Source: an uncultured Bacillales bacterium (lineage in GTDB: Bacteria; Bacillota_I; Bacilli_A; RFN20; CAG-826). From it: DNA of 64,000 nt. Where the stretch lies: positions 4,600 through 68,599 of the forward strand of contig CAMJAG010000002.1 of NCBI GenBank assembly GCA_946403545.1, read 5' to 3'. The translations under genes were made by a program, and so were the position numbers. The notes beneath the pieces are model-generated. The model saw nothing but the letters and a program-made list of their open reading frames with translations. It searched no databases and was not told the DNA's origin. The first letter of the stretch is position 1; each line of letters starts with the position of its first letter. This document shows positions 11,275-36,392 of this stretch, one piece after another.

Positions 11275-11302
11275 ATTTTTTCCTCCTTAAAATACCACAA
11301 TA

Positions 11303-11331
11303 AATATACACGCGTGTATGTATAAATACAA
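11303..11331 (-). promoter_or_regulatory. candidate sigma70 promoter of nifJ overlapped by a 14 bp perfect palindrome
   Basis: Minus strand reads TTGTAT (11326-11331), 17 nt spacer, TATATT (11303-11308). The palindrome ATACACGCGTGTAT (11306-11319) covers the -10 element and the spacer. Confidence 0.5.
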
Positions 11332-11368
11332 GGTTAAAAATCATTTTCTAAATACAGATAAATTTGCT

Positions 11369-11398
11369 AAAAAGAAAAGGTTCGAATTTAATTCGACC
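11369..11398 (-). terminator. terminator after the 146 aa gene
   Basis: Hairpin GGUCGAAUU...AAUUCGAACC (11379-11398, one bulge) starts right after the stop codon and is followed by UUUUCUUUUU. Confidence 0.6.
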
Positions 11399-11839
11399 CT
11401 ATTTCTTCTTTTTTCTCTCTTGTTGCTCTTCGACGATTAATTTCTTAAGTGTCTTTAAATCGTTATCTGTAAGAGTCATGTATTTATCTAACATGCCACC
11501 GATGGTCATCTTTTGATAGATGAAGTCACCAATGCCATCATATTTAGTGAAATCTTGTTTTCTAATAGCAGTTTGGACTAAGTGTGGTTTCTTTTCCTTA
11601 GCCTTTGCTTTTTCTTCCTCTATATCTTCTATATATTTCTTAATTTGAGGAACTAATTCCAAAAGATTGTATTCATAATCCATGTTTACCATTGGATCAA
11701 AAAAAGAAAGTGTTTCATTAATAACTTCAGGATAGATTCCTACCTCTTTACTTAACCTGTCAGCAGTAACGTATTTTTTCTTAATTTTACCCATTGCTGA
11801 CAAGTATTTTTTTAATACAGAAATACTTGGTTGTTTCAT
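11399..11839 (-). CDS. small putative DNA-binding protein; the N-terminus resembles the Rex N-terminal winged helix but there is no Rossmann domain
   Basis: 146 aa. By eye, residues ~5-70 (VLKKYLSAMGKIKKKYVTADRLSKEVGIYPEVINETLSFFD...DYEYNLLELVPQIKKYI) follow the Rex N-domain pattern (LYYRFL..RVSSAELS..V...IRRDFSYFG..GYGYNV..L). The C-terminus is a Lys/Glu-rich helix. Confidence 0.4.
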   Translation of the reverse strand: MKQPSISVLKKYLSAMGKIKKKYVTADRLSKEVGIYPEVINETLSFFDPMVNMDYEYNLLELVPQIKKYIEDIEEEKAKAKEKKPHLVQTAIRKQDFTKYDGIGDFIYQKMTIGGMLDKYMTLTDNDLKTLKKLIVEEQQERKKKK

Positions 11840-11906: not shown

Positions 11907-11982
11907 TGGTACCCCCTTAGGGACTCGAACCCTAGACCCACTGATTAAGAGTCAGTTGCTCTACCAACTGAGCTAAGGGGAT
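11907..11982 (-). tRNA. tRNA-Lys (anticodon CUU), 76 nt with encoded CCA
   Basis: Folded by hand: acceptor ATCCCCT/AGGGGGT, D arm GCTC-AGTTGGTA-GAGC, anticodon arm ACTGA-CTCTTAA-TCAGT, T arm TAGGG-TTCGAGT-CCCTA, discriminator A, then CCA. Position 1:72 is A:U and 2:71 is U:G. Confidence 0.9.
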
Positions 11983-12035: not shown

Positions 12036-12064
12036 CAAAGAAAAAGGGCTACAAATGTAGCCCC
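12036..12064 (-). terminator. terminator ending the 10-gene surface operon
   Basis: Minus-strand GGGCUACA-UU-UGUAGCCC (12046-12063) followed by UUUUUCUUUG. Confidence 0.75.
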
Positions 12065-12094
12065 TTATTTTAGTTTGAAACTAAATTCGTATTA

Positions 12095-15034
12095 CTATGC
12101 TTTTTTCCAAAGAGTTGTAGGAGTTTGGTTAGCGTTTCCGTAACATGCAAATCTTGGAGAGCCAGCATTGTATGATAATCTTCTAGCAGAATCTTTGACG
12201 TTTAAGATTGTTGGAACAGTACCTTCGAAGGAAATTGTCCAAGAAGCATTGTCATCGACACTTGCTTGTGTTTGTAAAGAGTTACCAGACTTCCAAGTGA
12301 GGTAAGTACCATCAGGAAGCTTTAATGCGAATGTATTTGCTTTAGAACCAGCAACAACTTCGATTAAGTATTTAGATGCATCTGGAGTAGCACCTGTGTA
12401 ATCATCAGCAATACCATATTTTGTGTTTGTTGTAGAAATACCACCGAATTGTTTCTTAACTGTAGCTGTTTCAGCAGCAAGAATGATCTTATCGCCAACA
12501 GCGATAGATGATGCTTTAGAAAGGCTTGTAGCAGTACCTTGAGCAACTGTAATTGTACATGTAGCTTCTAAGTTTCCTAATTTAGCCTTAACTGTAGCTG
12601 TAGAACCAACAACTGCATCACCAGCAACTGTAACTAAACCAGCATCAACTGTAACTTTGTTATTGCCTTCAACAGACCAAACGATTTCATCAGAGAATGC
12701 TTCAGCTGGTGTGAAGATAACATTAAGTTGTAATGTATCGTTTTGTTTAACTGTTGCAGATGTCTTATCTAATGCGATACCAGTAACTACTGGTGCTTCG
12801 TATGCTAAGACTGTTGGGTTTAATAATTGATATGCACTAGATGCGACTGTGCTTAAATCTGTTGCGTTAGATTTGTATGCGCTGACAAAACCAGCGACTT
12901 GAACTGTATAACCTTTTTTGAGCTTGCTTACTGCATCATTGTATGTAGCTTCTGATGGATAGCTCTTGTGTAAGTAAACAGTCATTTCTTTGCCTTCAGC
13001 AACTTTTACTTTGTAAGTAACGTTATCAGTTTTATAAGTATGTTTTGCTGGAGCTTGGCTAACGATACCAGAAACAACAGCATATCTACCTTGATCTTTA
13101 GCTGCTAATTTATCAACGTTATTTTCATTGATAATTAAAGCATTAGGTTGTGTTAAATCTGCATCTGCAACGATTTCTTGAGTTGTTGGAGTAACTTGTT
13201 TACCACCATTGAAGTTGCTTACGCTACCTTTAACGTGGATAATGCTACCCATTTGAACGTTTGCTAATGGAGAACCATAGATGTACATACCACTATCACC
13301 ATCAGCGATCCAGTAACCTTTAGTTGTACCGTTTTCATAACCACCAATGTAGTAGCCATATGTATCGACTTTAGTACCATAGATACCATCATCTAAGTCT
13401 TTTAATGTTTGTTGTCTAACAGTAACTTTACATTCAGCTGCTGCATTACCTGCTCTAGCTGTAATGACTGCGTTACCATTACCTTTAGGTGTAACAACAC
13501 CGTTTTCAACTGTTGCAACAGCTTCATTTGATGAAGACCATTCAACTGTTTCACCACATGGTTTGTCAGCTTTTCTAGCTGTTCTTGTAGCTGTTAATTC
13601 AAGTGTAACGCCTTCGACGTTAACGAGTTCAGCTGTCTTTTGGCTTAATTCGACTTTAACACATGGGTTATTATCGACTTGAATGAATGTGTATACAGGG
13701 AATAAAAGTCCTTCGACTTTTGCTTGAATGCAGACATAACCATTGCTGACACCAGTAACTTCACCTGTATCTTCGTCAACTGTAGCGATTGATTCATCTA
13801 ATGAATACCACTTTACAGCAGCCTCAGCTGCGCCTGCTGGAAGAAAATTTGCGATTAATTGTAATTTATTTCCTGGAGCGACAACTAAGTCACCTGTTTC
13901 AGATGTAATTGTTGCGCTTGTAGGAGCACTTTGATATTGTCTTGTAACTGTCATCTTTAAATATTTAGATGAGGAGTTACCACCAACCATGTAACCTTCG
14001 ACGTTAGAATATTTACCTTCTGTGTTGTCGACTTGACATGCATCTGTAGATGTAATGTTGATTTTACCTGAACATTCACTTGTATCGCCTTCAAGTGTCA
14101 TCATTGCGTCTTTACCAGTACCACCAGCACCTTTAACTTGTTCAATCTTAATTGGTTTGATTGATGTGTACTTTGTGGAACCATTAGTGCCGTTTGCTTT
14201 AGCTTCTGTGTAATAGCTAGCAAAATCAGCAGCTTTAAATTCTTTAAATGATTGAGTTTTGAATGTTCTGTTGATGACGTTTAATTGATCTGGGTATAAA
14301 GAGTTTTGCTTATCTGCTGTTGAAACAGGAGCGATACCTTCTAAAACGCCATAGTAGTTTGTGAATTTGACACTAACTTGGACAGAATCACCAACTTTAG
14401 CTTTTAAGTTGGATTTTTGACCATAAACGACTAATGGACAAATCTCTTCACCATCGTCGATAAGGATAGTTCCGTCATATGTTGCATCACTACTTGCCTT
14501 AGAAACAGGAATAGCGACGACTTTACCAGCGATTGTGTAAGTTGTTTCTGTCTTTGCAGAAGCATTACCTGCACTGCCGTTGAATGGAGCTTCTTTAATT
14601 GCTGCTTCAAATGCTTCTTTAATGCCTAAGACACTACTCTTTGCAATGTTGAGTTCGAGTTCAGCAACGACTTCATTGTTAACTTTAGCAACGACTGTAG
14701 CTTTACCTTCCTTCTTACATTCAACTGTAGTTGCATCTTTGAATTCTAAATATTCAGCATCTGCAGCGGATTTTAAAGCGAATGTAGCTTCACCGGAATA
14801 TGGGTTACCATTTTTGTTTAAAACAAATGTAACTCTTTCACCGACTTTTGCATCGCCAGACATTGCGATAGCATATTCGCTTACAATTGGACCTGGACCT
14901 GGTTGAGAACCACTGTCAGGTTCGGATGTATTGCTATTGTTTGCTGATGGGTTGTTTTGTGTACAACCAGTTAAAACAGGAGCGGCAATAGCAAATGTGA
15001 CAAATAATGTCGAAAAGATTTTCTTGAATTTCAT
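12095..15034 (-). CDS. large surface lipoprotein with Big_2-type Ig-like repeats and OB-fold-like modules; no catalytic motif seen
   Basis: Lipobox VLTGC, then a Ser/Asn/Pro linker. Several Big_2-like segments (e.g. ATVDEDTGEVTGVSNGYVCIQAKV, VATVENGVVTPKGNGNAVITARAGN, VTVDAGLVTVAGDAVVGSTATVKAKLG). Two OB-like modules of the type found N-terminal in extracellular nucleases (YTIAGKVVAI...VGDSVQVSVKFTNYYG and KGYWIADGDSGMYIYG...GSIIHVKGSVSNFNGGKQV). AGGAGG sits 6 nt before ATG 15034; the track start at 15040 is a TTG. Confidence 0.7.
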   Translation of the reverse strand: MKFKKIFSTLFVTFAIAAPVLTGCTQNNPSANNSNTSEPDSGSQPGPGPIVSEYAIAMSGDAKVGERVTFVLNKNGNPYSGEATFALKSAADAEYLEFKDATTVECKKEGKATVVAKVNNEVVAELELNIAKSSVLGIKEAFEAAIKEAPFNGSAGNASAKTETTYTIAGKVVAIPVSKASSDATYDGTILIDDGEEICPLVVYGQKSNLKAKVGDSVQVSVKFTNYYGVLEGIAPVSTADKQNSLYPDQLNVINRTFKTQSFKEFKAADFASYYTEAKANGTNGSTKYTSIKPIKIEQVKGAGGTGKDAMMTLEGDTSECSGKINITSTDACQVDNTEGKYSNVEGYMVGGNSSSKYLKMTVTRQYQSAPTSATITSETGDLVVAPGNKLQLIANFLPAGAAEAAVKWYSLDESIATVDEDTGEVTGVSNGYVCIQAKVEGLLFPVYTFIQVDNNPCVKVELSQKTAELVNVEGVTLELTATRTARKADKPCGETVEWSSSNEAVATVENGVVTPKGNGNAVITARAGNAAAECKVTVRQQTLKDLDDGIYGTKVDTYGYYIGGYENGTTKGYWIADGDSGMYIYGSPLANVQMGSIIHVKGSVSNFNGGKQVTPTTQEIVADADLTQPNALIINENNVDKLAAKDQGRYAVVSGIVSQAPAKHTYKTDNVTYKVKVAEGKEMTVYLHKSYPSEATYNDAVSKLKKGYTVQVAGFVSAYKSNATDLSTVASSAYQLLNPTVLAYEAPVVTGIALDKTSATVKQNDTLQLNVIFTPAEAFSDEIVWSVEGNNKVTVDAGLVTVAGDAVVGSTATVKAKLGNLEATCTITVAQGTATSLSKASSIAVGDKIILAAETATVKKQFGGISTTNTKYGIADDYTGATPDASKYLIEVVAGSKANTFALKLPDGTYLTWKSGNSLQTQASVDDNASWTISFEGTVPTILNVKDSARRLSYNAGSPRFACYGNANQTPTTLWKKA

Positions 15035-15056
15035 AACCAACCTCCTTCTTATGAAA

Positions 15057-15479
15057 TTACTTTTTGTCAGCCATGTTATCTTTGAGTTTAGCTATGGCTG
15101 AAATCTCTTTTTTATAAGCAATTCTATATTTTAAGTTAGTGAGAACTTGGACTAGCCCGAGGGTTAACAAAGTTACTCCACCAACTGCGCAGGCAATGCA
15201 AATCCAGAATTGCAAGGATAAGACATCTATACCTGCTGGTTTATTCATCTTCCTAGTGAAAGAAAGAATAAAGAATAAAACTGAGACCGCTAAACAAATG
15301 CCACCTAAAACGACTAAGCATAAACCATTGTCTTGGTTATCTAGTGTTTTAACGATGGATTGATGGTCTTTTCTGCTCTTATTAGTAAGCTCATCGTATG
15401 GTAAAGACCCCAATTCTTCTTCAGAAATAATTGGGTTTTCTTGAATTACGGATAATTTTTGAGTCTTTACTTCTTCCAT
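15057..15479 (-). CDS. small membrane protein with two TM helices
   Basis: 140 aa with an acidic N-terminus and two hydrophobic helices. It is packed 1 nt from the upstream gene and 22 nt from the start of the downstream lipoprotein gene. Confidence 0.55.
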   Translation of the reverse strand: MEEVKTQKLSVIQENPIISEEELGSLPYDELTNKSRKDHQSIVKTLDNQDNGLCLVVLGGICLAVSVLFFILSFTRKMNKPAGIDVLSLQFWICIACAVGGVTLLTLGLVQVLTNLKYRIAYKKEISAIAKLKDNMADKK

Positions 15480-15480
15480 A

Positions 15481-17544
15481 TTAATCAGCTAATTCGGATA
15501 ATGTGATGTCTGTGCCAGAGCAGATTTTAGCACTCATCTTCTTTTTACCACTAGTTGATTCATAACCAGTGGAAATAACGACTGTGTTAGTCATTTTCTT
15601 ACGTTTTGCAGTAACTTGAATTGTGTAAGCCTTATTTGGATTACTTTCATCAAGGTTAGCGTATTCAGCGCCTTTTTCGTTGAAGTAGTAAGATCCACCA
15701 GTGAAGAACTTATAGCTACGGCATGTGTTAATACCATATGTAACTAAGATTTCTTGGTCAACTGTGAATCTAATAACGCTTGAAGAATATCTTAATCCTG
15801 CGTTTTTGCTACCACCATAGCTAGCTGGATCATCATTCATTGTTTTACAATTGTCTGTTCCAAAACCAGCGTAGAAGATAGGAGCGTTAGATGTATTGTA
15901 GAAAGGATAAGCATCATTGTACTTATTGATTTCTTCAGAACCACCTTCGCCGATTTCTTCTGGTTGATTGTTATAGCTACTTGTGAATGGATAGCAGAAT
16001 ACATCATCAGTAATCTTTACTAAGACTTGTGGATAGTGTTTGCTATTAAATTGAGCACCTGTCACTTCAATAGGTCTAATTTCGTGACCACGAGAAATGA
16101 TTGTTGTGTCTCTATTTGGGTTTGGATTTAATGTGTGGTATGAAATACCTTGCATTTGATAACATCCACCATAACTTGAAATTGCGCCAATAACTTGGAC
16201 ATAGTCGCCAGTTTTAATTGGAGTTTCAGAATATGTGAAGACGTATAATCCATATGGATCGCTAGCTGCTAAATCAGCTGCGGAGTAAGATGGCTTATCT
16301 TGAATATAGAAAGATGTACCAACCTTACGTGTAACGTAACCTTTAACTTTGTATAAAGATTTTTTATTACAATAAATTGAATCTGGATAGTATTTTAAGT
16401 CAGCGTCATCATGTGTACCACTTGTGTAAAGACGGGACATTGATAATTCATCGACTTCTACTTTTTCATAATCAAAGTAGTTGTCATCTTCTTTATCAGA
16501 GTAAATGTGACGTTTATTTGCTTTTGCAGATAAGTTTGCTTTATCGAAATATCTATAGAAATAGTCACCTGTATCTTCTGGAGAACCGACACCGAATGAG
16601 AATCCTTGATAGACCATTTCAAGATTTAAGCATCTGAAATCGTTTTTTGTTGGGTTATCAACTGTTGCATACCAAACATAAGCTAAGCTTCTTTGGTTAC
16701 CATCAGCAGTTGCATAGTATGTACCTTGTTCACTAGAACCTAATTTGAGATCTTCTAATGTCATTTTATCACCATTTAAGCTAGCGGATTGACCAACAAG
16801 GATTAAGCTTGTAACGCCTGCGTATGTAGGAGTTACGTCTAAATATTTAAGTAAGGAGGAATCGCCTGAGTAAATGTATTTTGAATAGTAAGATGCAGTT
16901 AAGCCCCACTTTTCAATTTCACTTGTAGATTCAGGTGTATCAATACCTAAATAACGAATTTTAATTGTGTAACCTAAGTTTTTAGCTTCAACGTGTGTTG
17001 TATCGCCATCAACATAGTTTACGAAAGCATCGGAATCAACTTTTTGTCCTTTGTTATATTTTTTAGGAGCATTAGCTTGTTCGATACCACATCTACGGAA
17101 GTCGAGATTTTCTTTCTTATCAGTAGATGGTTTTGATGGATTCATAACTTCGTTAAAGACAGCATCAGAAATGTTGAGTTTGAATTTTTCAACAAAATCA
17201 ACACCTGGATCAACATCATAACTTGCCTTTAATTTGTTAGTTCCAGAAGTAATTTTTGTGGAATAAATTGCGGAACCATCTTCGTTTTTCTTAACGAGTT
17301 CACAATCTACACCATTATTAGTAACACTACCAATGAAGAAGTCTTCACTAGGTGTAACTGTAAATGTTAATGTATCGCCTGGTTTAACAGCGTTTGCTTC
17401 AGCGGAGAAATTAGATAATCTACCATAAATTGATGTAGTAGTTGTATCTAAATAGGATGTCTCAACTTTTTTAGTTTGTTGACAACCTGCTAAAGCGAAT
17501 CCTGCAATAACAAGGCCAATAACGTATTTGAAATTCTTTTTCAT
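15481..17544 (-). CDS. surface lipoprotein with a staphylococcal (micrococcal) nuclease-like domain and OB-fold-like modules
   Basis: Lipobox LAGC. SNase core: VDGDTTHV...IRYLGIDTPE...(insert)...NQRSLAYVWY...LNLEMVYQGFS, corresponding to the GDT / R-L-x-x-x-DTPE / R-x-L-A-Y elements of thermonuclease. A downstream OB-like segment reads YKVKGYVTRKVGTSFYIQD...GDYVQVIGAISSYGG. Confidence 0.8.
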   Translation of the reverse strand: MKKNFKYVIGLVIAGFALAGCQQTKKVETSYLDTTTTSIYGRLSNFSAEANAVKPGDTLTFTVTPSEDFFIGSVTNNGVDCELVKKNEDGSAIYSTKITSGTNKLKASYDVDPGVDFVEKFKLNISDAVFNEVMNPSKPSTDKKENLDFRRCGIEQANAPKKYNKGQKVDSDAFVNYVDGDTTHVEAKNLGYTIKIRYLGIDTPESTSEIEKWGLTASYYSKYIYSGDSSLLKYLDVTPTYAGVTSLILVGQSASLNGDKMTLEDLKLGSSEQGTYYATADGNQRSLAYVWYATVDNPTKNDFRCLNLEMVYQGFSFGVGSPEDTGDYFYRYFDKANLSAKANKRHIYSDKEDDNYFDYEKVEVDELSMSRLYTSGTHDDADLKYYPDSIYCNKKSLYKVKGYVTRKVGTSFYIQDKPSYSAADLAASDPYGLYVFTYSETPIKTGDYVQVIGAISSYGGCYQMQGISYHTLNPNPNRDTTIISRGHEIRPIEVTGAQFNSKHYPQVLVKITDDVFCYPFTSSYNNQPEEIGEGGSEEINKYNDAYPFYNTSNAPIFYAGFGTDNCKTMNDDPASYGGSKNAGLRYSSSVIRFTVDQEILVTYGINTCRSYKFFTGGSYYFNEKGAEYANLDESNPNKAYTIQVTAKRKKMTNTVVISTGYESTSGKKKMSAKICSGTDITLSELAD

Positions 17545-17563
17545 ACTTTATAAATCCTTATTA

Positions 17564-19075
17564 TTATGCAGCGGACTTGCATTGGTTGAATGCATATGTG
17601 AATGCATCATCAATAGAACGGTTTTCAAGATATGTGTACTTGATTAAGCTACCAATTTGAGTTCTAGCTGTACCAGATCCAACAAATGTTGGAGATGTGT
17701 AATAGTAGTCTTTTAATGTGGATGTAATTGATGGAATAGCGTATTTTAAGCCTTCATCTTTTAATGCGATCCAGCTCTTGTAGTTTGCTGTATCGTAACA
17801 AGAGATTCTAATTGGGTCATATGAGTTTTCAAGTGCTAATGCTGTGTTATTTTCTGTATCAGCAAGCATCTTATAGAATAACCATGCTCCCTTGTGAATG
17901 TAGTCATCATCGTTATTGAAGAAACAAATGGATGGACCTTGTTGGATATATTTTGGAGTTTCTCCATAGTATGGAACAGGTGCTAAATCGACTTGGAAGT
18001 TACTTGAAATGTTATAGCTAGAACCACCAGTAGAACCGATAGTCATAACGAGTTTTGCTTCACCAAAGTAATCGTTAGTGTATTTTGTACCACCTAAGCT
18101 ACCTTTAGTGACCATAACTTTATCTTTAACGTTTTGTAAAACGTCACCGACAAATGCTTTAGCATCGGCATTAACGAATGCGAAGTGTTGTTTTGGATCA
18201 CTTCTACTTGCATCATCGTTGACTGTATAAGGGATGCCTCTTTGTGCAAATTGAGTAATGAACATATTTGCATCAGAGTCATAACCGATTGGATAGAATT
18301 CACCAGCAACTTGGTTATCGCTTCTATCTTTAATGATTTTTTTACCAAGAGCAATCATGTCATCCCATTTTGTTGGAACTGTGTATGTATAACCTTGATG
18401 GCCAACAACATATTCTTTTAATGCAGCTAAATCTGTATCATATGTTGCGCTCTTTTCTCTTGTTTTACCTTCAACTTTTGCAACTAAACCAGCAAAAGTA
18501 GAATCGTTTGCGAATTTTACTTTATTTTGTTCATTTAAGCCATCCATATATGCACGGTTATAGTACATAACTTCAGTTGATTTATACATAGGCATGGACC
18601 AAACACCATCAAATTGATATTGGTTACCTTCAGCATAATATCCAGGAACAAAGTCAGCGATTTCGCTATCTTTGTAACCGAAGTTTGGATCTTTAAGGAA
18701 GTTGTCTAATCTTAACAATGAAGAATCTGCTAAATCTTTTGAAATGTATTCAGCAAAGCTGTCTGGATAGCCCATTGCTAATGCTGGAACTTCACCAGAA
18801 GATAATTTTGTTTTAGCAGCAGAATGTAAACCATCATAGTCACCAGCTAAGTGAACGAGGTTCATTTTGTATTTGCCTGCATATAAAGCATCAAATTTGT
18901 CTGCGACCTTTCTAAGTTCATCAGTTTTAGCATGACCTAAGCAGTGCCAGAAAGTGATTTCAACTTCTTTTGCAGGATCGTCAGTTGGTAGATTTCTATC
19001 GACATCGACAGTTCCACCACATGCTGTTAATGTTAACAATGCACTAGCAGCAATCAATAATAATTTTTTACGCAT
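17564..19075 (-). CDS. ABC transporter substrate-binding lipoprotein (family 1 / CUT1-like)
   Basis: 503 aa, lipobox LTACGG. Size, position next to MalF/G-like permeases and overall pattern fit a sugar-type SBP. Substrate unknown. Confidence 0.75.
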   Translation of the reverse strand: MRKKLLLIAASALLTLTACGGTVDVDRNLPTDDPAKEVEITFWHCLGHAKTDELRKVADKFDALYAGKYKMNLVHLAGDYDGLHSAAKTKLSSGEVPALAMGYPDSFAEYISKDLADSSLLRLDNFLKDPNFGYKDSEIADFVPGYYAEGNQYQFDGVWSMPMYKSTEVMYYNRAYMDGLNEQNKVKFANDSTFAGLVAKVEGKTREKSATYDTDLAALKEYVVGHQGYTYTVPTKWDDMIALGKKIIKDRSDNQVAGEFYPIGYDSDANMFITQFAQRGIPYTVNDDASRSDPKQHFAFVNADAKAFVGDVLQNVKDKVMVTKGSLGGTKYTNDYFGEAKLVMTIGSTGGSSYNISSNFQVDLAPVPYYGETPKYIQQGPSICFFNNDDDYIHKGAWLFYKMLADTENNTALALENSYDPIRISCYDTANYKSWIALKDEGLKYAIPSITSTLKDYYYTSPTFVGSGTARTQIGSLIKYTYLENRSIDDAFTYAFNQCKSAA

Positions 19076-19086
19076 AAAGATTCCTC

Positions 19087-20040
19087 CTAACCCTTAATGC
19101 CAGCACGGCCGACACCGCGCATGATGTATTTTCTGAAAAATACGAACAATAGTAATAATGGAACGGTAACGATAACAGTAGCAGCCATTTGTGCACCATA
19201 ATCGTCAACGTTATCTGCAACAGAGAATGTTTCTCTTAAGCCGTTTGTGATTAAGTAGACGTTCTTATTACCTGTTGCGATTAAGTTTGGCCACACGTAT
19301 GAGTTCCATGCGCCCATTAACTTAAGAATAAAGATAGTAGTTAAAGTTGGCATTGCTAAAGGTACCATAACTTGCCATAAGAATGACCAGTCTGATTTAC
19401 CATCAACTTTAGCTGCTAAGTATAATTCGTTAGGGATTTGCTTGAAGTTTTGTCTTAAAAGGTAGATGTAGAAGACACTCACCATGAAAGGCAAAATCAT
19501 CGCAGCAAAGTTACCAACGTAATTATTCATTTGAGTGAATCCAAGTCTTGAAACGGAAATGTAGTTAGAAATAACCATCATTTCACCAGGAATCATCATT
19601 GTGCCTAATAAAATTGTAAATACTAGGTCTTTGCCTTTGAAATTAAGTCTAGCGAATGCGAAAGCCGCTAGAATTGTTGTAACTAAAGTACCAATTGTAC
19701 TTAAGATACCAACTAATAATGTGTTTCTTAATAATGTTACGAAATCAAGTCTTGTTAAAGCTTCGCCATAGTTTGCCCAACGAATTGTCATTGGGAAGAA
19801 TGTTGGAACTAAACGTTTGATTTCTGCACCAGTTTTTAAGGATGTAATAATCATCCAATAGAATGGGAAGACGATGAGAACTCCCATTACTGTTAAGAAT
19901 GCATAGATAATAACCAAAGAGATGATATGAACAATCTTATCAATTCTTTGTTTAGTCTCTACTGATTGATTGCCACCGCGTAGTACTAAGACCATATCAG
20001 ATGTGTCGGCAGCGTATTTAAATGTTTCGTTGCTTTTCAT
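19087..20040 (-). CDS. ABC transporter permease (MalG/UgpE-like)
   Basis: 317 aa, about 6 TM helices, EAA-type loop AAKVDGKSDWSFLWQVMVPLAMP. Confidence 0.85.
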   Translation of the reverse strand: MKSNETFKYAADTSDMVLVLRGGNQSVETKQRIDKIVHIISLVIIYAFLTVMGVLIVFPFYWMIITSLKTGAEIKRLVPTFFPMTIRWANYGEALTRLDFVTLLRNTLLVGILSTIGTLVTTILAAFAFARLNFKGKDLVFTILLGTMMIPGEMMVISNYISVSRLGFTQMNNYVGNFAAMILPFMVSVFYIYLLRQNFKQIPNELYLAAKVDGKSDWSFLWQVMVPLAMPTLTTIFILKLMGAWNSYVWPNLIATGNKNVYLITNGLRETFSVADNVDDYGAQMAATVIVTVPLLLLFVFFRKYIMRGVGRAGIKG

Positions 20041-20041
20041 A

Positions 20042-20992
20042 CTAATAGTGAACCCTCTTCTTACTTACTTTATTTTGTACAACCGTGAATATCATAATAA
20101 TGATAAACAGGAAGATTGACGCAGCGGATGCGTATTGGACTTTATTCTTTGCAACTTGGTCGTAAATAAAGAAGACCATGGTTTGCATTGAAGTTGGACC
20201 TGTGTTGATATCAAATGAACCACCACCAGCGCCGAATAAACCAATAACTGAGTTGTATTCTTTAAATGCACCGATGAATGATGTAATCATCATGTATAAA
20301 ATTTGTGGAGATAATAATGGAATTGTAATCTTCCATGCAGTTTTAATTTTGCCAGTGCTATCGATTTGAGCAGCTTCGTAGTATTGTTTATCAATATTTT
20401 GTAAACCACCTAAGAAAATCAAAATCTTGTATGGTAATGAATGCCATACAATGTAGAAACAAATTGCGAATAATGCTCTAGGATAAGCAACTGTTGCACC
20501 TGTAATTGGAGATGGAGTAATCCAAGTTAAGTTTGGACTTCTCAAAATGGAGTTGATAATACCATAGTCGGAAGAGAAGATAACTGAGAAAACCATACCA
20601 ATAGCGATTGCGTTAGTAACATAAGGCATGAAGAAGACTGTTTGGAAGAACTTCTTTAATGGTTTAATGCTATTTAATGCAATTGCGATTACAAGTGAAA
20701 GAATGATAGAACATGGAACAGTAATAATTGTGAGAACCAATGTGTTTGGTAATGCAGTTTTCATAACCAATTCAAACATTGAACCAGCACCACCACCAAG
20801 GCTGCCCCATGGTGTTAAGACAGATGCGTAGTTATCTAGTGTGAAACCAGAGAACTTACCTGTCATGTAGTTATAGTCTTTTAAGAATGAGACGAAGAAA
20901 GTGTTGATAATAGGGAAAAATGTAAACACCGATAACAATATGATTACCGGAGCTAAATATAACCAACCTTTCCAATTGTTCTTGCTTTCCAT
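20042..20992 (-). CDS. ABC transporter permease (MalF/UgpA-like)
   Basis: 316 aa, about 6 TM helices, EAA-type loop EAAQIDSTGKIKTAWKITIPLLSP. Confidence 0.85.
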   Translation of the reverse strand: MESKNNWKGWLYLAPVIILLSVFTFFPIINTFFVSFLKDYNYMTGKFSGFTLDNYASVLTPWGSLGGGAGSMFELVMKTALPNTLVLTIITVPCSIILSLVIAIALNSIKPLKKFFQTVFFMPYVTNAIAIGMVFSVIFSSDYGIINSILRSPNLTWITPSPITGATVAYPRALFAICFYIVWHSLPYKILIFLGGLQNIDKQYYEAAQIDSTGKIKTAWKITIPLLSPQILYMMITSFIGAFKEYNSVIGLFGAGGGSFDINTGPTSMQTMVFFIYDQVAKNKVQYASAASIFLFIIIMIFTVVQNKVSKKRVHY

Positions 20993-20994
20993 AA

Positions 20995-22476
20995 TTACTT
21001 AGTTCTAATGCGTTCTTCAGTTTGACCGTCGAATACGAAGATCTTTTGTGGTTTTATGCCAACTTTAGCTTCGCCAATGTTGACTTTGATAAGGGAATCG
21101 ATAATAACTTTTGCTTCAGCACCAACTAAATTAGGGTTTGTGCAAACAAGAGATAAATCTCTACCCATTGTAACGATTTGATTGACATTGAGTGTTAAAA
21201 CTCTGTCTTTTGCAGGAACATCTTCACCACATAAGAAACCTTCAGGTCTAATTGCAGCGAAAACTTTATATCCATCTTCGTAGTTAGCGAATGCTGGATC
21301 TGCAAAAATCTTTTCATTTCCGATATATAATGCACCCTTCTTGAGAGTAGCGGAGAATACATTGATTGGAGGTGTACCTAAGAATTTAGCAACGAATAAG
21401 TTTGCAGGATCGTTATAAACGTCTTGTGGATTACCACGTTGCATTTGAACACCGAGTTTCATAACGACGATATCGTCACAGATTGACATAGCTTCTTCTT
21501 GGTCGTGAGTAACGAAAATCGTTGTAATTCCTGTTTCTTTTTGGATTCTTCTAATTTCTTCACGTGTTTGTAAACGCAAACGAGCATCCAAGTTAGAAAG
21601 AGGTTCGTCGAGTAATAAAACTCTTGGTTTCTTAACCAAAGCACGAGCGATAGCGACACGTTGTTGTTGGCCACCGGACAATTCGCTTGGTTTTCTTAAT
21701 AAATATTCATCAATTTGAACTAAACGAGATGTTTCTTGGACTAAAGCGTCGATTTCATCTTTGTTGAGTTTGCGTTTGACAGGAATAGTATTTCCTTCAG
21801 CATTATGAATATAGAATTTTTCATCAACGCTGAAACCTTTCTTTTCTAAACCTGCGATGATAGCTTCATTTTCAGCAGTTAAATCTCTAACAGCGAGATC
21901 TCTTGCTTCATGTAATGTAGTTTCATCGTCGACATATTTGTATAAAATCTTAAAGATTTTTTCAGCAATTGAAGTAACGATATGATATTTGAAGACTAAC
22001 TTTCTAGCAGTCATGTCTTTAGAATATTTGTCTTTGAATGAGCTTGTACGAATAATATGTGTAATATCGTCTAAGTCATTTTCAAGTAAATTGATTACTA
22101 AAGTATTGTCTTCAACTTTCTTTGCTTTTTTATTTGTGACAACGTTTAAGTTTGTTAATGGGAACTTAACGTTATCGTAAACAGTCATATGAGGATATAA
22201 AGCATAGTTTTGGAAAACTAAACCGATTTCTCTCTTTTCTGGAGTTAAATGTGTAACGTCATCATCACCGAACCAGATTTCACCATCAGTAGGTGCTTTT
22301 AATCCAGCAATCATGTAAAGAGTGGTTGACTTACCACAACCAGAAGGACCTAAAAGACCAATAAGCTTTCCACTTTCAATATCCAAGTTTAAATCGGAAA
22401 CCGCAGTAGAATCAGGAATATTCTTCTTTGGATTTCCAGGGAAAACCTTAGTCAAATTTTTTAATTTGATTTCCAT
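20995..22476 (-). CDS. ABC transporter ATPase (MalK/UgpC/MsmK-like) with a ~125 aa insertion in the helical subdomain
   Basis: Walker [11 protein letters not shown]-loop [13 protein letters not shown], signature [14 protein letters not shown], Walker [13 protein letters not shown]-loop FVTHDQ and a C-terminal MalK-type regulatory domain. About 160 residues separate the Q-loop from the signature, versus roughly 35-40 in canonical MalK. Confidence 0.88.
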
Positions 22477-22542
22477 ATGTTTGCCTCCGCAAAATTATTA
22501 TAAATTACCAGAAGTCTTTTTCATAGAAAAATATATAATATT

Positions 22543-23511
22543 TTATTTAATAATGAAATCTTTATTTTCTATGCTAACCTTTTCAAGATTGCTCTTACTA
22601 AATTGTCTTTCACCTTCGTCCAAATAAATATGTTGGTTAGAAGTATCTACAAAGTAATCATTGAAAATGTAATTAGTTAATGATTGGTTTGTTTTAGTTA
22701 AAAACATCATTCCAATTGAGATAAAACTTGGAATTAAAAATGCCACGACATTGAGATAAACAAACACTAATAAATTGAATAAAGTTCTTAGAATGAATGT
22801 GAGTTTTTTAGGAGTTAGAGCATGGATATCTAGCAAACCAATTTTGCTTAATTTCATGCCGATAGTTGATCTTCCTCTCTTAAAGAGAGTTAGTGGCAAT
22901 AAGAGGTAATATATAAGGTAGAAAAATGTTGCAGAAGAGATGATTTCCACCATTACTTTCCAGAAGTCAAAGCGGGTTAAATCAAAATACTTAGAATTGT
23001 AAAATAAATAACCTAAAGAATGATCATCGATTTCTGTCTTATAAAAATCTAAAAGATAAGCTGGTTGGACTTCATTCTCCACTACTTGGCCTTCTTTTTC
23101 TATGAAAAGATGTACTCCTTCTGTTGTTGCTTTAAGCTTTCTTTCAGAATATTCAGTTAGGTGTTTTGTGTCCGTAAAGAAATCTGGATTAGCGTAAAAT
23201 TCATCGATACAAGTGACTAAGAACTCCTTCTTTTCTTGAATTGATGTGAACTCGTTTGAATCATCTATATATTTAGTTACAACTTTGTTGTCCTTATATA
23301 ATTTTGATTCATTTCGAAGTGTTATTAACTGATTCTCTTTTGACTTGTACCAGCCTGAATTATTTACAATTGAGTTAATAACTGTGAAGAAAATAAGAGA
23401 AGTTAAAAGCCAAATAGATATGTCAAAAAAGTGCGACAAAACGCGTTTAGATAAAGGAGCTTTATCATAGACTACTTCTATCTTTTTTGATTCGTTATTC
23501 TGGCTTTCCAT
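22543..23511 (-). CDS. RDD-family-like membrane protein with a large extracytoplasmic insert
   Basis: 322 aa. TM1 (FFDISIWLLTSLIFFTVI), a ~150 aa hydrophilic region, then an RDD-like segment KRGRSTIGMKLSKIGLL plus TM helices. The C-terminus (TKTNQSLTNYIFNDYFVDT) is homologous to that of the upstream paralog. Confidence 0.55.
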   Translation of the reverse strand: MESQNNESKKIEVVYDKAPLSKRVLSHFFDISIWLLTSLIFFTVINSIVNNSGWYKSKENQLITLRNESKLYKDNKVVTKYIDDSNEFTSIQEKKEFLVTCIDEFYANPDFFTDTKHLTEYSERKLKATTEGVHLFIEKEGQVVENEVQPAYLLDFYKTEIDDHSLGYLFYNSKYFDLTRFDFWKVMVEIISSATFFYLIYYLLLPLTLFKRGRSTIGMKLSKIGLLDIHALTPKKLTFILRTLFNLLVFVYLNVVAFLIPSFISIGMMFLTKTNQSLTNYIFNDYFVDTSNQHIYLDEGERQFSKSNLEKVSIENKDFIIK

Positions 23512-24823
23512 CTTCTTTAGGTGTTTCGTTATTTAATAATCTTTCGCCATCCACTACTGCGGTTTCAAAGTCTCTTGTATCTTTAACAACCATATTTGAA
23601 ATTAAGAGTGCTAGCGTTTGATTTTTCTTAGTAATAATTAAAATTATTATACTTGCAACAAGTAGGACTAATGAGAATATTTCAAATGTAAAGAAATTCA
23701 GTGGTCCCACTAGTGGCAGATTTAAAACTCCAATATATCCTGTGAAGAACAATGCTATAGCCATACTTGCCAAATAGACAAAGTAATTCACCACATGATA
23801 AAGAATAATATTAACAGGCTTAGGTGTCATTTCATCATTTCTTGCTAAAGCAAGATTCAATGTCTTTTGACATAAAGTAATGTATGATCCAGACATTGCT
23901 CTACCGATGAATAATACAGCGATATAGCCTACTGTATAAGCGATAATATATGCGACAAAACCAACCATCGCTAAAGCGTGATATGCAGAATAGAATTCTT
24001 TTTCAAATCCCTTATAAGTAACAGAATACTTTTCAACTTCATCAATACCCGTTTGAATACCATTCTTGTAGCAAGTTACAAGGTCAGTATACAAAGTATT
24101 AGCAGTCTCATTAGTAGCATCAGAATAAACAAGTTTATTTATAAGCGCTTGTGTGTTTTCTTTGTTTAAAACAGCGTAAATAGGGAGAGTATCCTTATAA
24201 GTTTGATATTCCTCTACATCTTCTTTAACAAAGTTATCTTTGAATCCTTCTTTAGAAGTATATCCAAATTTATTTTCATATGTACCTATAACTATGTTTT
24301 TAATATTTTCAGGGTTTTTTTCGATAGGTTTAATATCACGCCCATATGTAAAATCATTCAAGTTTTCTAAGTGATAAACAGCCCAGAAATATACGACATT
24401 ATTTAATGAATGTTTATCGTATTCATTTATGAATGTTTCTTCTACACTAACTTTGTGAGTTGTATCATAAGTAGAATCTTCTTTTTCTACTGGATACGCT
24501 ATGTCATAGACATATGCACTAGTTTTAACTAAAGAAACAACATAGTTTTTAGCATCCACCGCTACTTCTCTAGTCATTTGAGTTTCAGTATCATAATGCA
24601 TTAAGTGAGTTCTATTAATAAACTTCTTTGCATCTACTGTAACTGTGTTATACTTTTCAACGTTTTGAGTGGATACAGGTAATTTAGAACCACCTAAAAG
24701 AGTTAAATAGAATATTAATAAAGAGGATATAAAAACCAGACCAAAATCTAAAGCCATTGAAATAAAGACTCTAGTTTTCTTAGCAATTACATTGTTTTTA
24801 TATTTACTTACTGTCTCAATCAT
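23495..24823 (-). CDS. RDD-family-like membrane protein, longer paralog
   Basis: 442 aa with the same architecture: TM1, a ~250 aa hydrophilic insert, then a TM bundle. C-terminal TKKNQTLALLISNMVVKDT aligns with the 322 aa protein. It overlaps its neighbours by 17 nt and 1 nt. Confidence 0.5.
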   Translation of the reverse strand: MIETVSKYKNNVIAKKTRVFISMALDFGLVFISSLLIFYLTLLGGSKLPVSTQNVEKYNTVTVDAKKFINRTHLMHYDTETQMTREVAVDAKNYVVSLVKTSAYVYDIAYPVEKEDSTYDTTHKVSVEETFINEYDKHSLNNVVYFWAVYHLENLNDFTYGRDIKPIEKNPENIKNIVIGTYENKFGYTSKEGFKDNFVKEDVEEYQTYKDTLPIYAVLNKENTQALINKLVYSDATNETANTLYTDLVTCYKNGIQTGIDEVEKYSVTYKGFEKEFYSAYHALAMVGFVAYIIAYTVGYIAVLFIGRAMSGSYITLCQKTLNLALARNDEMTPKPVNIILYHVVNYFVYLASMAIALFFTGYIGVLNLPLVGPLNFFTFEIFSLVLLVASIIILIITKKNQTLALLISNMVVKDTRDFETAVVDGERLLNNETPKEDGKPE

Positions 24824-26964
24824 TAGATATCAATTGCCTCGTTACTTTGTAAAAATCTAATTAACGCTAATTTAGCGGTGTAATCATCGTATTGTATATA
24901 AGATGTGTATTGACTAGAGTTGCTAGTCTTACCAGCGATATATGAAATTGTAACACAATTTGTGTATCCATCAGTATATATAGGTTCACATAACTCCCAA
25001 GAAGGGTTACTTGAACTTCTAATCCTGCTTACATTTCGAGAATTACATTTCTCTAGACATAATGGATTATCAAACGGAGTAGTTTTAATCAAATCTCGAT
25101 AAGTAAAATCACCTTGAGGAATATAATCCACTCTTACTCCACCAGTATTATGAGATGCAATATAAACTGTTTTATTATCAAACAAATCAGGATTGTCATT
25201 AACAAACCATACCATCGCTTGGCAAATTACTAAAGTAAATTGATTTTTGCTATAACCTTGATCAAATGTTCTTAACACTGAATCTGGGTCTGCAAGGAAT
25301 TCATCTTTATATTTTTCTACTAAATCAGTGATTTCTTTATCTTCAGTTCTGCAATTGTTAACTGCATTAAGAACTTCTACTGTTCCAGTAGCACTATAGG
25401 AAATACCATCTTCACTTGTTAATTCAAATGTCATATGACCAATATTTTCACCATTACAACCAGTTTCCATATATGGAACTTCATTGCAATATCCTTGCTT
25501 TTTGTAGTGGTCATGCGCAAACATCATGCCATCAACATATCTAGCACCAGTTTGTGTATCAATTTGAGTTAAATCATAGTAGCTTGTGCCATATCCATCA
25601 TCACCATTATTAAGCCCTTCATCATGACCAACAGAAAGAATTAGATCACAGTTATAGGACAATCTAAGGGTTCTAGAATACTCTTTAATATAATTAAATG
25701 GTGAAGGGAAATAAAAATCACTACCATATTGAGCATCAATACTACTACCCATATCCGCTCTTGCATAACCAACAATACCAATTTTAAGACCATCTCTTTC
25801 AATAACGGTAAATGGTTCTAACCAATCAGGACGAGTAGTTTTATCGTTAGCGTAGAATGTATTACAAGAAAGTAATGGGAAATCCATCATTTCTTGGTTA
25901 GATATAATCTTGTCTTCACCCCAGTCAAATTCATGGTTACCTAATGTCATTGCATCAAAACCAATGATGTTCATAGCATCTACCATAATATGGCCACGTG
26001 TATCATTACTTTCAACCCCACCTTGGAACATATCTCCACCAGAAAGAATGATAGCATTTTCATCTTCATCTGCTTTCTTATCTTTAAGATAAGATGAGAT
26101 ATAAGCCATACCAGCTTCACCATCATCAGTGTTTCTAATAAATGATCCATGTGTGTCGTTTACATAGTAAACATTAATTGTTTTATCATTTCCGGTTTGT
26201 CCACCAGAATTCTTTTCAACTTTAATGTCAAAACTAATTGAAGCGTAACCCTCTACTCTAACTTCAACAGGAATTGTTCCTGAATACTTTAAAATATCAC
26301 CATCTTTAATTGAAAGAGTGTACGCTAAATCAGTTTTGCCTTTATTATCTCCTACTGAAAGACCAGTAGAATCAAATGCATCTCCTACTTTATAAGTGGT
26401 TTTATTAGGAAGATGATTAATGACTAATTCAAGATCCTTTTCTACCACTACTTTAAATGATGTAGCGGAATATCCTTCTTTTGTAACATTAATTGTCTTT
26501 TCACCAATAGAAGTAAATGCATCGCCAACTCTGTAAGAGAGATTATAATCTTTAACTTCTTCTCCACCATCACTAGTGATGATTAGTCCATCAACAGTGA
26601 AGTATTCGCCTAATTTATATGTTGTTTTGTTAGGCATTTGTGCTACTTTGAGCACTGGCATCTTTTTAATTTCAATCTTAAAAGAAGCAGGTTTATAGTC
26701 TTCTTTCGTAAGTTCAACTTTTCTAATTCCTTCTTTTTTAAGAATTGTGCCTCTAGAAATAGAACAATCATAGTCTTCTACTTCCACACCATCTTTATCT
26801 ACAACCACTAAACCATCAGTGGAAAACATTTCGTTTACGTTATATACGACTTTATCTGGTTGTTTGTTAATAATTAAAGTATTCGAAAAACGAGTGTTAT
26901 TACATCCAGATAAAGGAAGTAATATTGAGATTATTAAACATTTAAAAAATTGTTTAATCTTCAT
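24823..26964 (-). CDS. surface lipoprotein: three Big_3-like repeats fused to a 5'-nucleotidase / metallophosphoesterase (UshA family)
   Basis: Lipobox LPLSGC. Three ~75 aa repeats (PDKVVYNVNEMFSTDGLVV, PNKTTYKLGEYFTVDGLII, PNKTTYKVGDAFDSTGLSV). Metallophosphatase motifs VNDTHGS, GGDMFQGG and GNHEFDWG, and a C-terminal 5'-nucleotidase substrate-binding-like region (YRDLIKTTPFDNPL). Confidence 0.82.
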   Translation of the reverse strand: MKIKQFFKCLIISILLPLSGCNNTRFSNTLIINKQPDKVVYNVNEMFSTDGLVVVDKDGVEVEDYDCSISRGTILKKEGIRKVELTKEDYKPASFKIEIKKMPVLKVAQMPNKTTYKLGEYFTVDGLIITSDGGEEVKDYNLSYRVGDAFTSIGEKTINVTKEGYSATSFKVVVEKDLELVINHLPNKTTYKVGDAFDSTGLSVGDNKGKTDLAYTLSIKDGDILKYSGTIPVEVRVEGYASISFDIKVEKNSGGQTGNDKTINVYYVNDTHGSFIRNTDDGEAGMAYISSYLKDKKADEDENAIILSGGDMFQGGVESNDTRGHIMVDAMNIIGFDAMTLGNHEFDWGEDKIISNQEMMDFPLLSCNTFYANDKTTRPDWLEPFTVIERDGLKIGIVGYARADMGSSIDAQYGSDFYFPSPFNYIKEYSRTLRLSYNCDLILSVGHDEGLNNGDDGYGTSYYDLTQIDTQTGARYVDGMMFAHDHYKKQGYCNEVPYMETGCNGENIGHMTFELTSEDGISYSATGTVEVLNAVNNCRTEDKEITDLVEKYKDEFLADPDSVLRTFDQGYSKNQFTLVICQAMVWFVNDNPDLFDNKTVYIASHNTGGVRVDYIPQGDFTYRDLIKTTPFDNPLCLEKCNSRNVSRIRSSSNPSWELCEPIYTDGYTNCVTISYIAGKTSNSSQYTSYIQYDDYTAKLALIRFLQSNEAIDI

Positions 26965-26987: not shown

Positions 26988-27026
26988 GAATAAAAAAATA
27001 AAGGACTACGCTTTCGAGTAGTCCTT
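26988..27026 (-). terminator. strong terminator after tuf
   Basis: Perfect 9 bp stem AAGGACUAC / GUAGUCCUU (27001-27026) with an 8 nt loop, followed on the minus strand by UAUUUUUUUAUU. Confidence 0.8.
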
Positions 27027-27053: not shown

Positions 27054-28238
27054 TTATTTGAGAATTTCGTTAACTGTACCAGCACCAACTGTACGGCCAC
27101 CTTCACGGATGGAGAATTTTGTACCTTTTTCCATAGCGATTGGGTGAATGAGTTCAACTGTTAATTCAACGTTATCACCAGGCATAACCATGTCAACACC
27201 TGCAGGAAGTGTAATGACACCAGTGACGTCTGTTGTACGGAAGTAGAATTGTGGTCTGTAGTTGCTTAAGAAAGCTGTATGACGGCCACCTTCTGCTGCT
27301 GTTAAAACGTAAACTGAACCTTTGAAGAGTTTGTGTGGAGTAACTGTTCCAGGTTTTGCTAAGACTTGACCACGTTGGACTTGGTCACGGTTGATACCTC
27401 TTAAGAGGACACCAACGTTGTCACCAGATGTGACGTAATCACATGTCTTACGGAATGATTCAAGACCTGTAATAACAGATGTTTGAGTATCACGGATACC
27501 AACGATTTCGACGTTGTCACCTAATTTAGCTGTACCACGTTCGACACGGCCTGTAACGACTGTACCACGACCAGAAATTGTCATAACGTCTTCGATAGCT
27601 AATAAGAATGGTTTGTCTGTTTCTCTAGCTGGAGCTGGGATGTAAGAATCACATGCATCCATGAGTTCGAGAATGTGTTGTTGTTCAGCTGGGTCACCAT
27701 CAAGAGCTTTTCTTGCGGAACCACGGATAACTGGGACTTCGTCACCAGGGAAACCATAGCTGTTTAATAAGTCACGAACATCCATTTCGACTAAGTCTAA
27801 TAATTCTGGATCATCGACTAAGTCTGTTTTGTTGATAAAGACAACAATGTATGGAACACCAACTTGACGAGCAAGAAGGATGTGTTCACGTGTTTGTGGC
27901 ATAACGCCGTCTGTACCTGCAACAACGAGGATAGCACCATCCATTTGTGCAGCACCAGTAATCATGTTCTTAACATAGTCAGCGTGGCCTGGGCAGTCAA
28001 CGTGAGCATAGTGTCTTTTAGCAGTTTGATATTCAATGTGTGCAGTATTAATTGTAATACCACGAGCTTTTTCTTCAGGTGCTGAGTCGATTTGGTCATA
28101 AGCTGTAGCGACTGCGCCACCTTGTTTAGCTAAGACAGATGTAATAGCAGCAGTTAATGTTGTTTTACCGTGGTCGACGTGACCGATTGTACCAATATTA
28201 ACGTGTTCTTTGGATCTGTCAAATTGTTGTTTTGCCAT
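27054..28238 (-). CDS. tuf: elongation factor Tu
   Basis: 394 aa with [18 protein letters not shown] and NKTD motifs. Unmistakable EF-Tu. Confidence 0.98.
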
Positions 28239-28288
28239 ATAATTGAAATCTCCTTTCGATCGTATAATGCAAACTTTGCAACGAAATC

Positions 28289-28317
28289 ATAATATAGCAT
28301 TTAATTTTAATGTGCAA
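28289..28317 (-). promoter_or_regulatory. candidate internal promoter for tuf
   Basis: Minus strand reads TTGCAC (28312-28317), 17 nt spacer, TATTAT (28289-28294) in the fusA-tuf spacer. Confidence 0.4.
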
Positions 28318-28343
28318 CACCTATTTCATAGGTATTACTTCGA

Positions 28344-36314: not shown

Positions 36315-36392
36315 ATTTTTCCCCTTTGCAATCAAATTGCATATGAAATGCTTTCTCATTCTTTTTGAATTGAAAAAACACTTAACATATTT

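Follow-up and report, generated by a model that had tools for sequence, protein, structure and literature searches.

A conserved nuclease-importer gene cluster of uncultured gut Bacilli and Clostridia with a predicted role in nucleic-acid scavenging

Introduction

Why would a bacterium encode a surface nuclease directly beside an ATP-binding cassette (ABC) importer of the CUT1 type, and what would such an importer carry? The question is raised by a block of ten minus-strand genes (here denoted A to J) in DNA from an uncultured Bacillales bacterium (GenBank assembly GCA_946403545.1, contig CAMJAG010000002.1, positions 4,600 to 68,599). This whole stretch of 64,000 nucleotides is referred to as the window. 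An earlier note, made from the letters of the window, had described the block as one operon for capture, degradation and uptake of nucleic acid. Here we compared the block with related loci and analyzed its products by profile searches and structure models. The core of the block is a module conserved in two bacterial classes, and we estimate the probability that the locus encodes a cell-surface system scavenging extracellular nucleic acid at about 0.62.

Similar gene arrangements are known in mycoplasmas. For two decades it has been suggested that the nuclease-ABC operons of these bacteria supply nucleotide salvage; the transported molecule was never identified, and import of nucleic-acid breakdown products has never been shown biochemically (PMC3585158, PMC9740415). 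The operon encodes a P80/P81/MslA lipoprotein, a SNase lipoprotein and a Ugp-like ABC transporter. Its genes are transcribed together in M. agalactiae (PMC3585158), and it has been termed a putative nucleotide transporter operon (PMC4045577). The nucleases of such operons, of which mhp379, MAG_5040, MG186, MPN133 and MBOVPG45_0310 are examples, include enzymes active on DNA and RNA (PMC3585158, PMC4045577, PMC12115388, PMC9740415), and reviews have taken up the model in which nucleic acid is captured, cleaved and imported (PMC9740415, PMC12115388).

Results

One genome per species was scanned for nuclease H. The open reading frames (ORFs) of the best ~80 loci were compared with the ten window proteins by BLASTP and then by family hidden Markov models; the counts given here refer to loci with enough flank. 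The same gene order was found in at least 77 distinct loci, at protein identities down to 25-30%. At least 55 distinct loci are from uncultured gut or rumen Bacilli, with names such as "Bacilli bacterium", "Mollicutes bacterium", Candidatus Enteromonas, Candidatus Onthovivens and Clostridium sp. CAG:568, hosts which we take to belong to the GTDB orders RF39/RFN20 (RF39-like loci). The importer genes D, E, F and G accompany H in 38/38 RF39-like loci. The RDD-like genes C and B are present in 36/38 and 35/38, the gene for a protein with two transmembrane segments (2-TM protein), I, in 49/54, a J-type gene in 37 of 42, and the 5'-nucleotidase gene A in 10 of 31.

At least 22 distinct loci from Clostridia show a simpler form, with one RDD protein, the importer, the nuclease, an Ig-like/OB protein and an ATPase of normal length. 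In all 18 clostridial loci with enough flank, D-E-F-G-H is preceded, at a distance of 36-111 nt, by a single RDD-like gene (252-320 aa), whose homology to B and C is supported by hhalign (98.6%). Next after H comes a large ORF in 17/17; no I-type gene was found in the Clostridia loci. A search starting from the clostridial RDD protein alone found three distant members in three distinct contexts (four loci), and each showed the same neighbourhood. The junctions between importer and nuclease genes measure 8-23 nt across loci of both classes.

This synteny rules out a chance juxtaposition of the genes. The conserved module consists of RDD protein(s), CUT1 importer, substrate-binding protein (SBP), SNase lipoprotein and Ig/OB surface protein, to which the Bacilli form adds the 2-TM protein; the 5'-nucleotidase is an optional member. 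The suggestion that the SNase lipoprotein and the OB/Ig proteins form a coherent unit with a CUT1 importer is thus supported by conserved co-occurrence across two classes, and the domain assignments proposed for all ten products hold in Pfam and NCBIfam searches, transmembrane (TM) prediction and hhalign.

Gene H (15481-17544) encodes a nuclease lipoprotein of 687 aa. The protein matches the Pfam SNase family at 25.0 bits (cutoff 21). Its AlphaFold2 (AF2) model has a pLDDT of 89.9 and a pTM of 0.81, and the top 50 Foldseek matches of this model in the PDB are all SNase structures (target TM-score 0.78-0.83, top ~0.81; E ~3e-7). The model divides H into an Ig-like domain (residues 30-111), a SNase domain with an insert (~150-345), an OB-like unit of five strands (397-465) and a beta-rich C-terminal domain (480-687). 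A single-sequence PDB search with H returned nothing, and SNase was reached only through a profile of 31 homologues, in which the DGDT and R....DTPE motifs of H align with staphylococcal nuclease. In this alignment D181, R197, D202, T203, E205 and R285 correspond to SNase D21, R35, D40, T41, E43 and R87. These catalytic and Ca-binding residues are invariant in the 31 homologues except at D202, where 27 sequences have D and 4 have N. The earlier note had counted catalytic residues missing on alignment as a point against its reading, and all six are present. Judged by model and alignment, H is a SNase family member with complete fold and catalytic and Ca-binding residues. An exact look-up of the window protein gave no record; full-length homologues of H number in the hundreds in metagenomes.

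Four genes between the RDD-like pair and H are predicted to encode the importer: D (20995-22476, 493 aa), E (20042-20992, 316 aa), F (19087-20040, 317 aa) and G (17564-19075, 503 aa). In NCBIfam, D matches UgpC in two stretches (2.7e-100) and MalK (1.2e-79), with the profile covered to the C-terminus, and an OB_MalK domain is precomputed in homologues of D. These are the features of a MalK/UgpC-type ATPase with a C-terminal regulatory domain. D has an insertion of ~120 aa (residues ~115-235) between the Q-loop region and the signature motif; a clostridial orthologue without the insertion is 60-62% identical on either side of the insertion point. Across RF39-like loci the length of the ATPase is 481-632 aa. 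The permeases E, which is UgpA/MalF-like, and F, which is UgpE/MalG-like, match BPD_transp_1 (2e-16 and 4e-17, respectively) as well as UgpA (2.4e-20) and UgpE (6e-29). G carries a lipobox and matches SBP_bac_8 (1.4e-16). Together, these matches identify D, E, F and G as a CUT1-type ABC importer with a cluster-encoded binding protein.

The Ugp matches of the four proteins are all below the NCBIfam cutoffs, which are equivalog cutoffs for UgpB (45.9 bits against 411), UgpA (73.5 against 335) and UgpE (101.6 against 297) and a subfamily cutoff for UgpC (335.9 against 432). D to G are not members of the Ugp glycerol-3-phosphate (G3P) transporter equivalog. The UgpB model is matched, far below its cutoff, by 30/30 tested members of the G family. 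The mycoplasma P68-lipoprotein model gives weak matches, at 6.5e-10 for G of the window and at best 1e-17 among 17/30 relatives (cutoff 200 bits), and some members of the family weakly match carbohydrate and chitobiose binding-protein models. Because the scores with Ugp models lie far below the curated cutoffs, we assign G and its relatives, by their profile scores, to a separate CUT1 subfamily.

Gene B (23495-24823) encodes an RDD-like membrane protein of 442 aa in which a ~240-aa loop separates TM1 from the C-terminal TM core, and gene C (22543-23511) an RDD-family membrane protein of 322 aa with a mostly helical loop domain of ~140 aa. C matches Pfam RDD at 29.5 bits (cutoff 24.1). B gave no Pfam match; family alignments from related loci showed by hhalign that B is a full-length paralogue of C (99.8%, E 1.6e-27), and the view of B as a protein without kinship to RDD is thereby excluded. 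In the C family R23, D30, R212, R214, D285 and D289, which flank TM segments, are invariant, as are R13, D20, D214 and D223 in the clostridial relatives. The AF2 model of C (pLDDT 78.9) consists of long membrane helices and the mostly helical loop domain, and hydropathy and charge suggest a topology with the N-terminus inside and the large acidic loop outside. The family is narrow: a profile search of 1.84 billion representatives found 535 relatives, nearly all full length and called "RDD family protein" where named by the source.

Gene I (15057-15479) encodes a small membrane protein of 140 aa with TM segments at 53-71 and 84-102; its N tail is acidic and its C tail basic. His39, the short loop between the TM segments and the basic C tail are conserved in its family, for which Pfam gave only noise and zinc-ribbon matches. 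Many homologues (L003, L005, L016, L022, L049, L053 and others) have an N-terminal CxxC..CxxC zinc ribbon, which is absent from the window protein. The ribbon in so many relatives argues for cytoplasmic tails of I.

The positions of these genes vary among loci. The B-C pair is located after J, not before D, in L016, L020 and L042, and in L016 (15388-21124) and L042 (11038-18464) it lies directly before a second paralogous ABC set. One clade carries an extra pair of SBP and 2-TM genes upstream of B (L049:56-2199, L053:49-2149, L055:141-2180, L058 and L063), and L090:3996-8734 has an extra set of permease, permease, SBP and OB-protein genes upstream. Both the displaced B-C pair before a second ABC set and the extra SBP/2-TM pair link the RDD and 2-TM proteins with components of the importer and not with the nucleotidase.

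Gene J (12095-15040) encodes a large lipoprotein of 981 aa with three Big_2 domains (2e-25) and putative OB folds; a tRNA_anti-codon OB match is marginal (28.3 bits, cutoff 27). Domain scans found no catalytic domain in J, a single-sequence PDB search gave only Ig-domain matches, and BLASTP of J against H and against itself found no internal repeats. The position of J is conserved and its sequence evolves fast (17-25% identity). Among proteins at the J position in 23 loci, Big_2 was found in 22, Big-like domains in 11 and OB in 6. The clostridial counterparts contain aBig_2, and their OB matches reach 43.7 bits (E 2.7e-11, L070).

The first gene of the block, A (24823-26964), encodes a lipoprotein of 713 aa and is an accessory, variably present gene. 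Its product matches Metallophos (30 bits, cutoff 21.5), 5_nucleotid_C (24.8, cutoff 23.6) and Big_3 in Pfam and UshA in NCBIfam (1.4e-36). The metallophosphatase motifs DTHG270, GDMFQG310, GNHE342 and HDH484 are intact, and by these motifs and matches A is a UshA-type 5'-nucleotidase. Residues 30-250 form three Ig-like repeats of ~72 aa, which emerged only by direct alignment; self-BLASTP of the N-terminal part found no internal repeats. A 499-aa Endonuclease_1 (PF04231) gene lies directly upstream of the 5'-nucleotidase gene in L001:1-578 and L002:1-578. No Endonuclease_1 was found among the window ORFs scanned. A may serve other substrates, for example the products of the Endonuclease_1 encoded beside it in some relatives.

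A mechanical ORF list reproduced the ten minus-strand ORFs, from 26964 to 12095, at the coordinates first reported. Neighbouring genes of the block overlap by 1 or 17 nt or are separated by 1-19 nt, and the sole larger gap, of 66 nt, lies between C and D (22477-22542). J starts with TTG, and an ATG lies two codons further in. The four lipoproteins A, G, H and J carry among them the lipoboxes LSGC, LTAC, LAGC and LTGC, read from the translations. A search for terminator-like hairpins located the intrinsic terminator that closes the cluster at 12043-12066 (previously placed at 12036-12064) and the tuf terminator at 27001-27026, both on the minus strand, so that the bracketing of the block by terminators stands.

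The claim of a single ten-gene operon fared less well. The C-D gap contains a promoter-like site, ATGAAA-16-TATAAT (22524-22497, minus strand), and a strong GGAGG Shine-Dalgarno sequence. At the same gap the close relatives L007, L009, L011, L012, L040, L041 and L061 have a near-consensus TTTACA-17-TATAAT; the clostridial gap before the ATPase gene is mostly short and without such a promoter. This conserved internal promoter makes a single operon doubtful. D to J probably have their own promoter, with A-B-C upstream, directly after tuf, and we consider two overlapping transcription units more likely than one ten-gene operon. Gene A has no recognisable Shine-Dalgarno sequence, and its start codon is 36 nt past the tuf terminator; it may be expressed by read-through from tuf or from a promoter that overlaps the terminator. 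An Rfam scan found no riboswitch or leader within the cluster. The GC content is 31% across the A-B-C genes (22001-26000) and 35-38% across D-J.

Discussion

We propose the following route for nucleic-acid scavenging by the locus. Lipid-anchored Ig-like/OB modules, in J and in the OB unit of H, would hold DNA or RNA at the membrane, where the SNase domain of H would cut it to mono-, di- or short oligonucleotides. A phosphate-ester product would reach the permeases E and F by way of G, and its import would be driven by the ATPase D. Where present, A would open a further branch that yields nucleosides and phosphate. We regard B, C and I as probable accessory subunits in the membrane, with a part in organising or regulating the assembly of importer and nuclease. 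The earlier note had drawn a complete outside-to-inside route of binding, cutting, dephosphorylation and import. Of this, the conserved grouping of SNase, surface proteins and importer is supported. The 5'-nucleotidase is not a fixed part of the route, and dephosphorylation becomes an optional step. The idea of capture, cutting and import is also less novel than was implied, because that model had already been published for mycoplasmas. Since A is optional, free nucleosides do not seem to be the obligatory cargo.

Several points weigh against this reading. Function is predicted throughout, from sequence and from models. The OB call for H was made from its strand pattern and sub-threshold Pfam matches, and in segment scans of J the OB matches are weak and below threshold per domain. 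Gene A is found in 10/31 loci with enough flank, at times downstream and once on the other strand. The products of staphylococcal nuclease carry 3'-phosphates; from general knowledge such products are chemically mismatched to a UshA-type enzyme and not expected to be its substrates, which makes a chain of cutting and then dephosphorylation uncertain. To our knowledge, the CUT1 binding proteins characterised so far have sugar, polyol or glycerol phosphate ligands. Among named proteins G is closest to G3P binders of the UgpB type, the nearest PDB sequence to G is a G3P-binding protein (E 7e-6), and the homologous ABC genes of M. pneumoniae are annotated UgpCAE and drawn as a glycerol-3-phosphate transporter (PMC3178575). 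A Foldseek search of the PDB with the model of C found no fold match (best E 0.9), and the role of B, C and I in the importer is a prediction.

For these membrane proteins we offer, tentatively and at well under even odds, the proposal that the RDD subfamily, with the 2-TM protein in the Bacilli form, provides dedicated subunits of a nuclease-coupled importer for nucleotides or short oligonucleotides. If true, this would be the first CUT1-type importer with a substrate derived from nucleic acid and the first defined role for this RDD subfamily, in a machine widespread in abundant, genome-reduced gut and rumen Bacillota. Alternatively, B, C and I might have an independent membrane function, such as RDD cation/proton transport that supplies Ca2+ or a suitable pH to the nuclease, or one unrelated to it. 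One RDD protein has been reported as a Na+(Li+,K+)/H+ antiporter (PMC5996927), charged residues of B and C that lie within the membrane or close to it are invariant, and the pair follows J rather than preceding D in three loci. However, the displaced pair stays in the cluster, in two of these loci directly before a second ABC set, and the clostridial RDD gene keeps its short distance from the ATPase gene in 18/18 loci; we regard an independent function as doubtful. Down-regulation of both the surface nuclease MHO_0730 and the RDD family protein WP_012855725.1 is reported for M. hominis grown on thymidine (PMC9301678); the accession numbers are far apart, and this link is suggestive only.

What the importer carries is the second point on which readings divide. 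The importer could be Ugp-like and take up G3P, glycerophosphodiesters or another sugar phosphate, with the SNase lipoprotein as a general surface phosphodiesterase that provides phosphate or carbon. The best named matches of D, E, F and G are UgpC, UgpA, UgpE and UgpB, all 30 tested G-family members match the UgpB model, and both the nearest PDB sequence and the M. pneumoniae annotation point the same way. Yet all Ugp matches are far below the curated cutoffs (45.9 against 411 bits for UgpB), the genes conserved beside the importer encode a nuclease and OB/Ig proteins rather than glycerophosphodiesterases of the GlpQ type, and the mycoplasma counterpart lipoprotein MslA is reported, in work cited in PMC4045577, to bind single- and double-stranded DNA. 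We find the Ugp-like explanation unlikely. For the scavenging system, a phosphate-ester ligand such as a nucleotide or short oligonucleotide would fit both the kinship of G to UgpB and the neighbours of its gene.

That the importer takes an oligosaccharide, with the nuclease and OB/Ig proteins clearing DNA of biofilm or mucus under regulation shared for ecological reasons only, appears quite improbable: CUT1 systems typically import sugars, some G-family members have weak matches to sugar-binding models and three glycoside hydrolase family 3 (GH3) genes lie elsewhere in the window, but importer and nuclease are adjacent, at 8-23 nt, in at least 77 loci of two classes, and the gene tables examined show no glycoside hydrolase in or directly beside the cluster, the GH130 gene of L003 lying ~3.4 kb past it. 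An importer that serves the GH3 enzymes of the window is likewise unlikely, since the importer accompanies the nuclease in dozens of loci and no GH3 gene is nearby in the gene tables examined for other loci.

The description that fits the cluster best is that of an enlarged and widely distributed variant of the nuclease-ABC operon of mycoplasmas. The parallel drawn with mycoplasmas, a SNase lipoprotein beside a Ugp-like ABC transporter, is real and documented (PMC3585158, PMC4045577). In both, a surface SNase lipoprotein adjoins a co-directional CUT1/Ugp-like ABC transporter and a lipoprotein resembling a binding protein, and the logic proposed is to bind a polynucleotide, cut it and import the products (PMC3585158, PMC4045577, PMC9740415). 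The ATPase is unusually long in both, with a gene of 2103 bp in M. bovis (PMC4045577), and the G family weakly matches the P68 model; G is likened to MslA/P80 by description only. The gene order differs: ATPase, permease, permease, SBP and nuclease here, whereas in mycoplasmas the order is lipoprotein, nuclease, ATPase, permease and permease. The nuclease here has 590-760 aa with Ig-like, OB-like and C-terminal domains, compared with 250-390 aa in mycoplasmas, and the RDD, 2-TM and Ig/OB proteins have no counterpart described for the mycoplasma operon. The cluster resides in uncultured Bacilli and Clostridia of gut and rumen, in contrast to animal-pathogenic mycoplasmas, and no mycoplasma locus was found among the best ~80 loci of the genome scan.

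YhcR of B. subtilis is a wall-anchored, surface-exposed protein that combines OB, SNase and 5'-nucleotidase modules. The same module types, OB fold, SNase and UshA-type 5'-nucleotidase, occur on the cell surface here. However, YhcR is one LPXTG-anchored chain without a link to an importer, whereas here the modules are split over separate lipoproteins and tied to an importer, with the 5'-nucleotidase optional. The locus works at most like YhcR and is not a member of the YhcR type.

A cultured, wall-less relative of the Bacilli, Izemoplasma (Xianfuyuplasma coldseepsis), grows on extracellular DNA (PMC8397711). Its locus, compared by description only, also clusters a thermonuclease, other nucleases, phosphohydrolases and ABC transporters (PMC8397711), but it has EddB, a DNase/RNase endonuclease and phosphate transporters, and RDD, 2-TM or Ig/OB proteins are not mentioned. 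RDD proteins that are encoded beside a larger membrane complex and work with it have precedents. Mam1B is encoded in the Mce1 importer operon of M. tuberculosis and is a partner in the membrane complex (bioRxiv 10.1101/2025.03.26.645568), and SppI partners SppA in B. subtilis (PMC7568657). The Mce partner is an ABC-type importer; the Mce and SppA machines are both unrelated to the importer of the cluster. Unlike those systems, B and C belong to a narrow subfamily, whose large loop domain has no solved structural match.

A literature search found no description of the expanded composition, that is, the RDD pair, the 2-TM protein and the large Ig/OB lipoprotein, in agreement with what had been noted before, and found nothing on RF39-like or clostridial clusters or on a link between RDD proteins and importers. 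The new elements seem to be the strict RDD association in two classes, the 2-TM protein, the positionally conserved Ig/OB protein and the spread beyond mycoplasmas. The presence of the module in many gut and rumen Bacilli, in enlarged form, and in Clostridia, in simpler form, offers more proteins to choose from for ligand and structural studies and suggests that these gut lineages commonly scavenge extracellular DNA or RNA. Strict adjacency of RDD and importer genes in two classes also provides a testable context for a large family of almost unknown function.

Other features of the window

The cluster follows fusA-tuf in the window (27054-30425) and likewise in L003 (L003:1-1382), whose nuclease is 47% identical. 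Past the cluster there is a tRNA-Lys gene at 11907-11982. A ~145-aa ORF and a PFOR gene come after the cluster both in the window (7726-11839) and in Candidatus Enteromonas L005 (14922-19062).

The three GH3 paralogues of the window (979-1144 aa) are located at 32925-36359, 36490-39429 and 40787-44176, all on the minus strand, and have a permuted order in which the GH3 C-terminal domain is followed by a Fn3-like domain and then by the GH3 N-terminal domain. An ordinary ribosomal protein L10 leader (RF00557, 48.2 bits) lies at 53672-53793 on the minus strand, upstream of the rplJ region.

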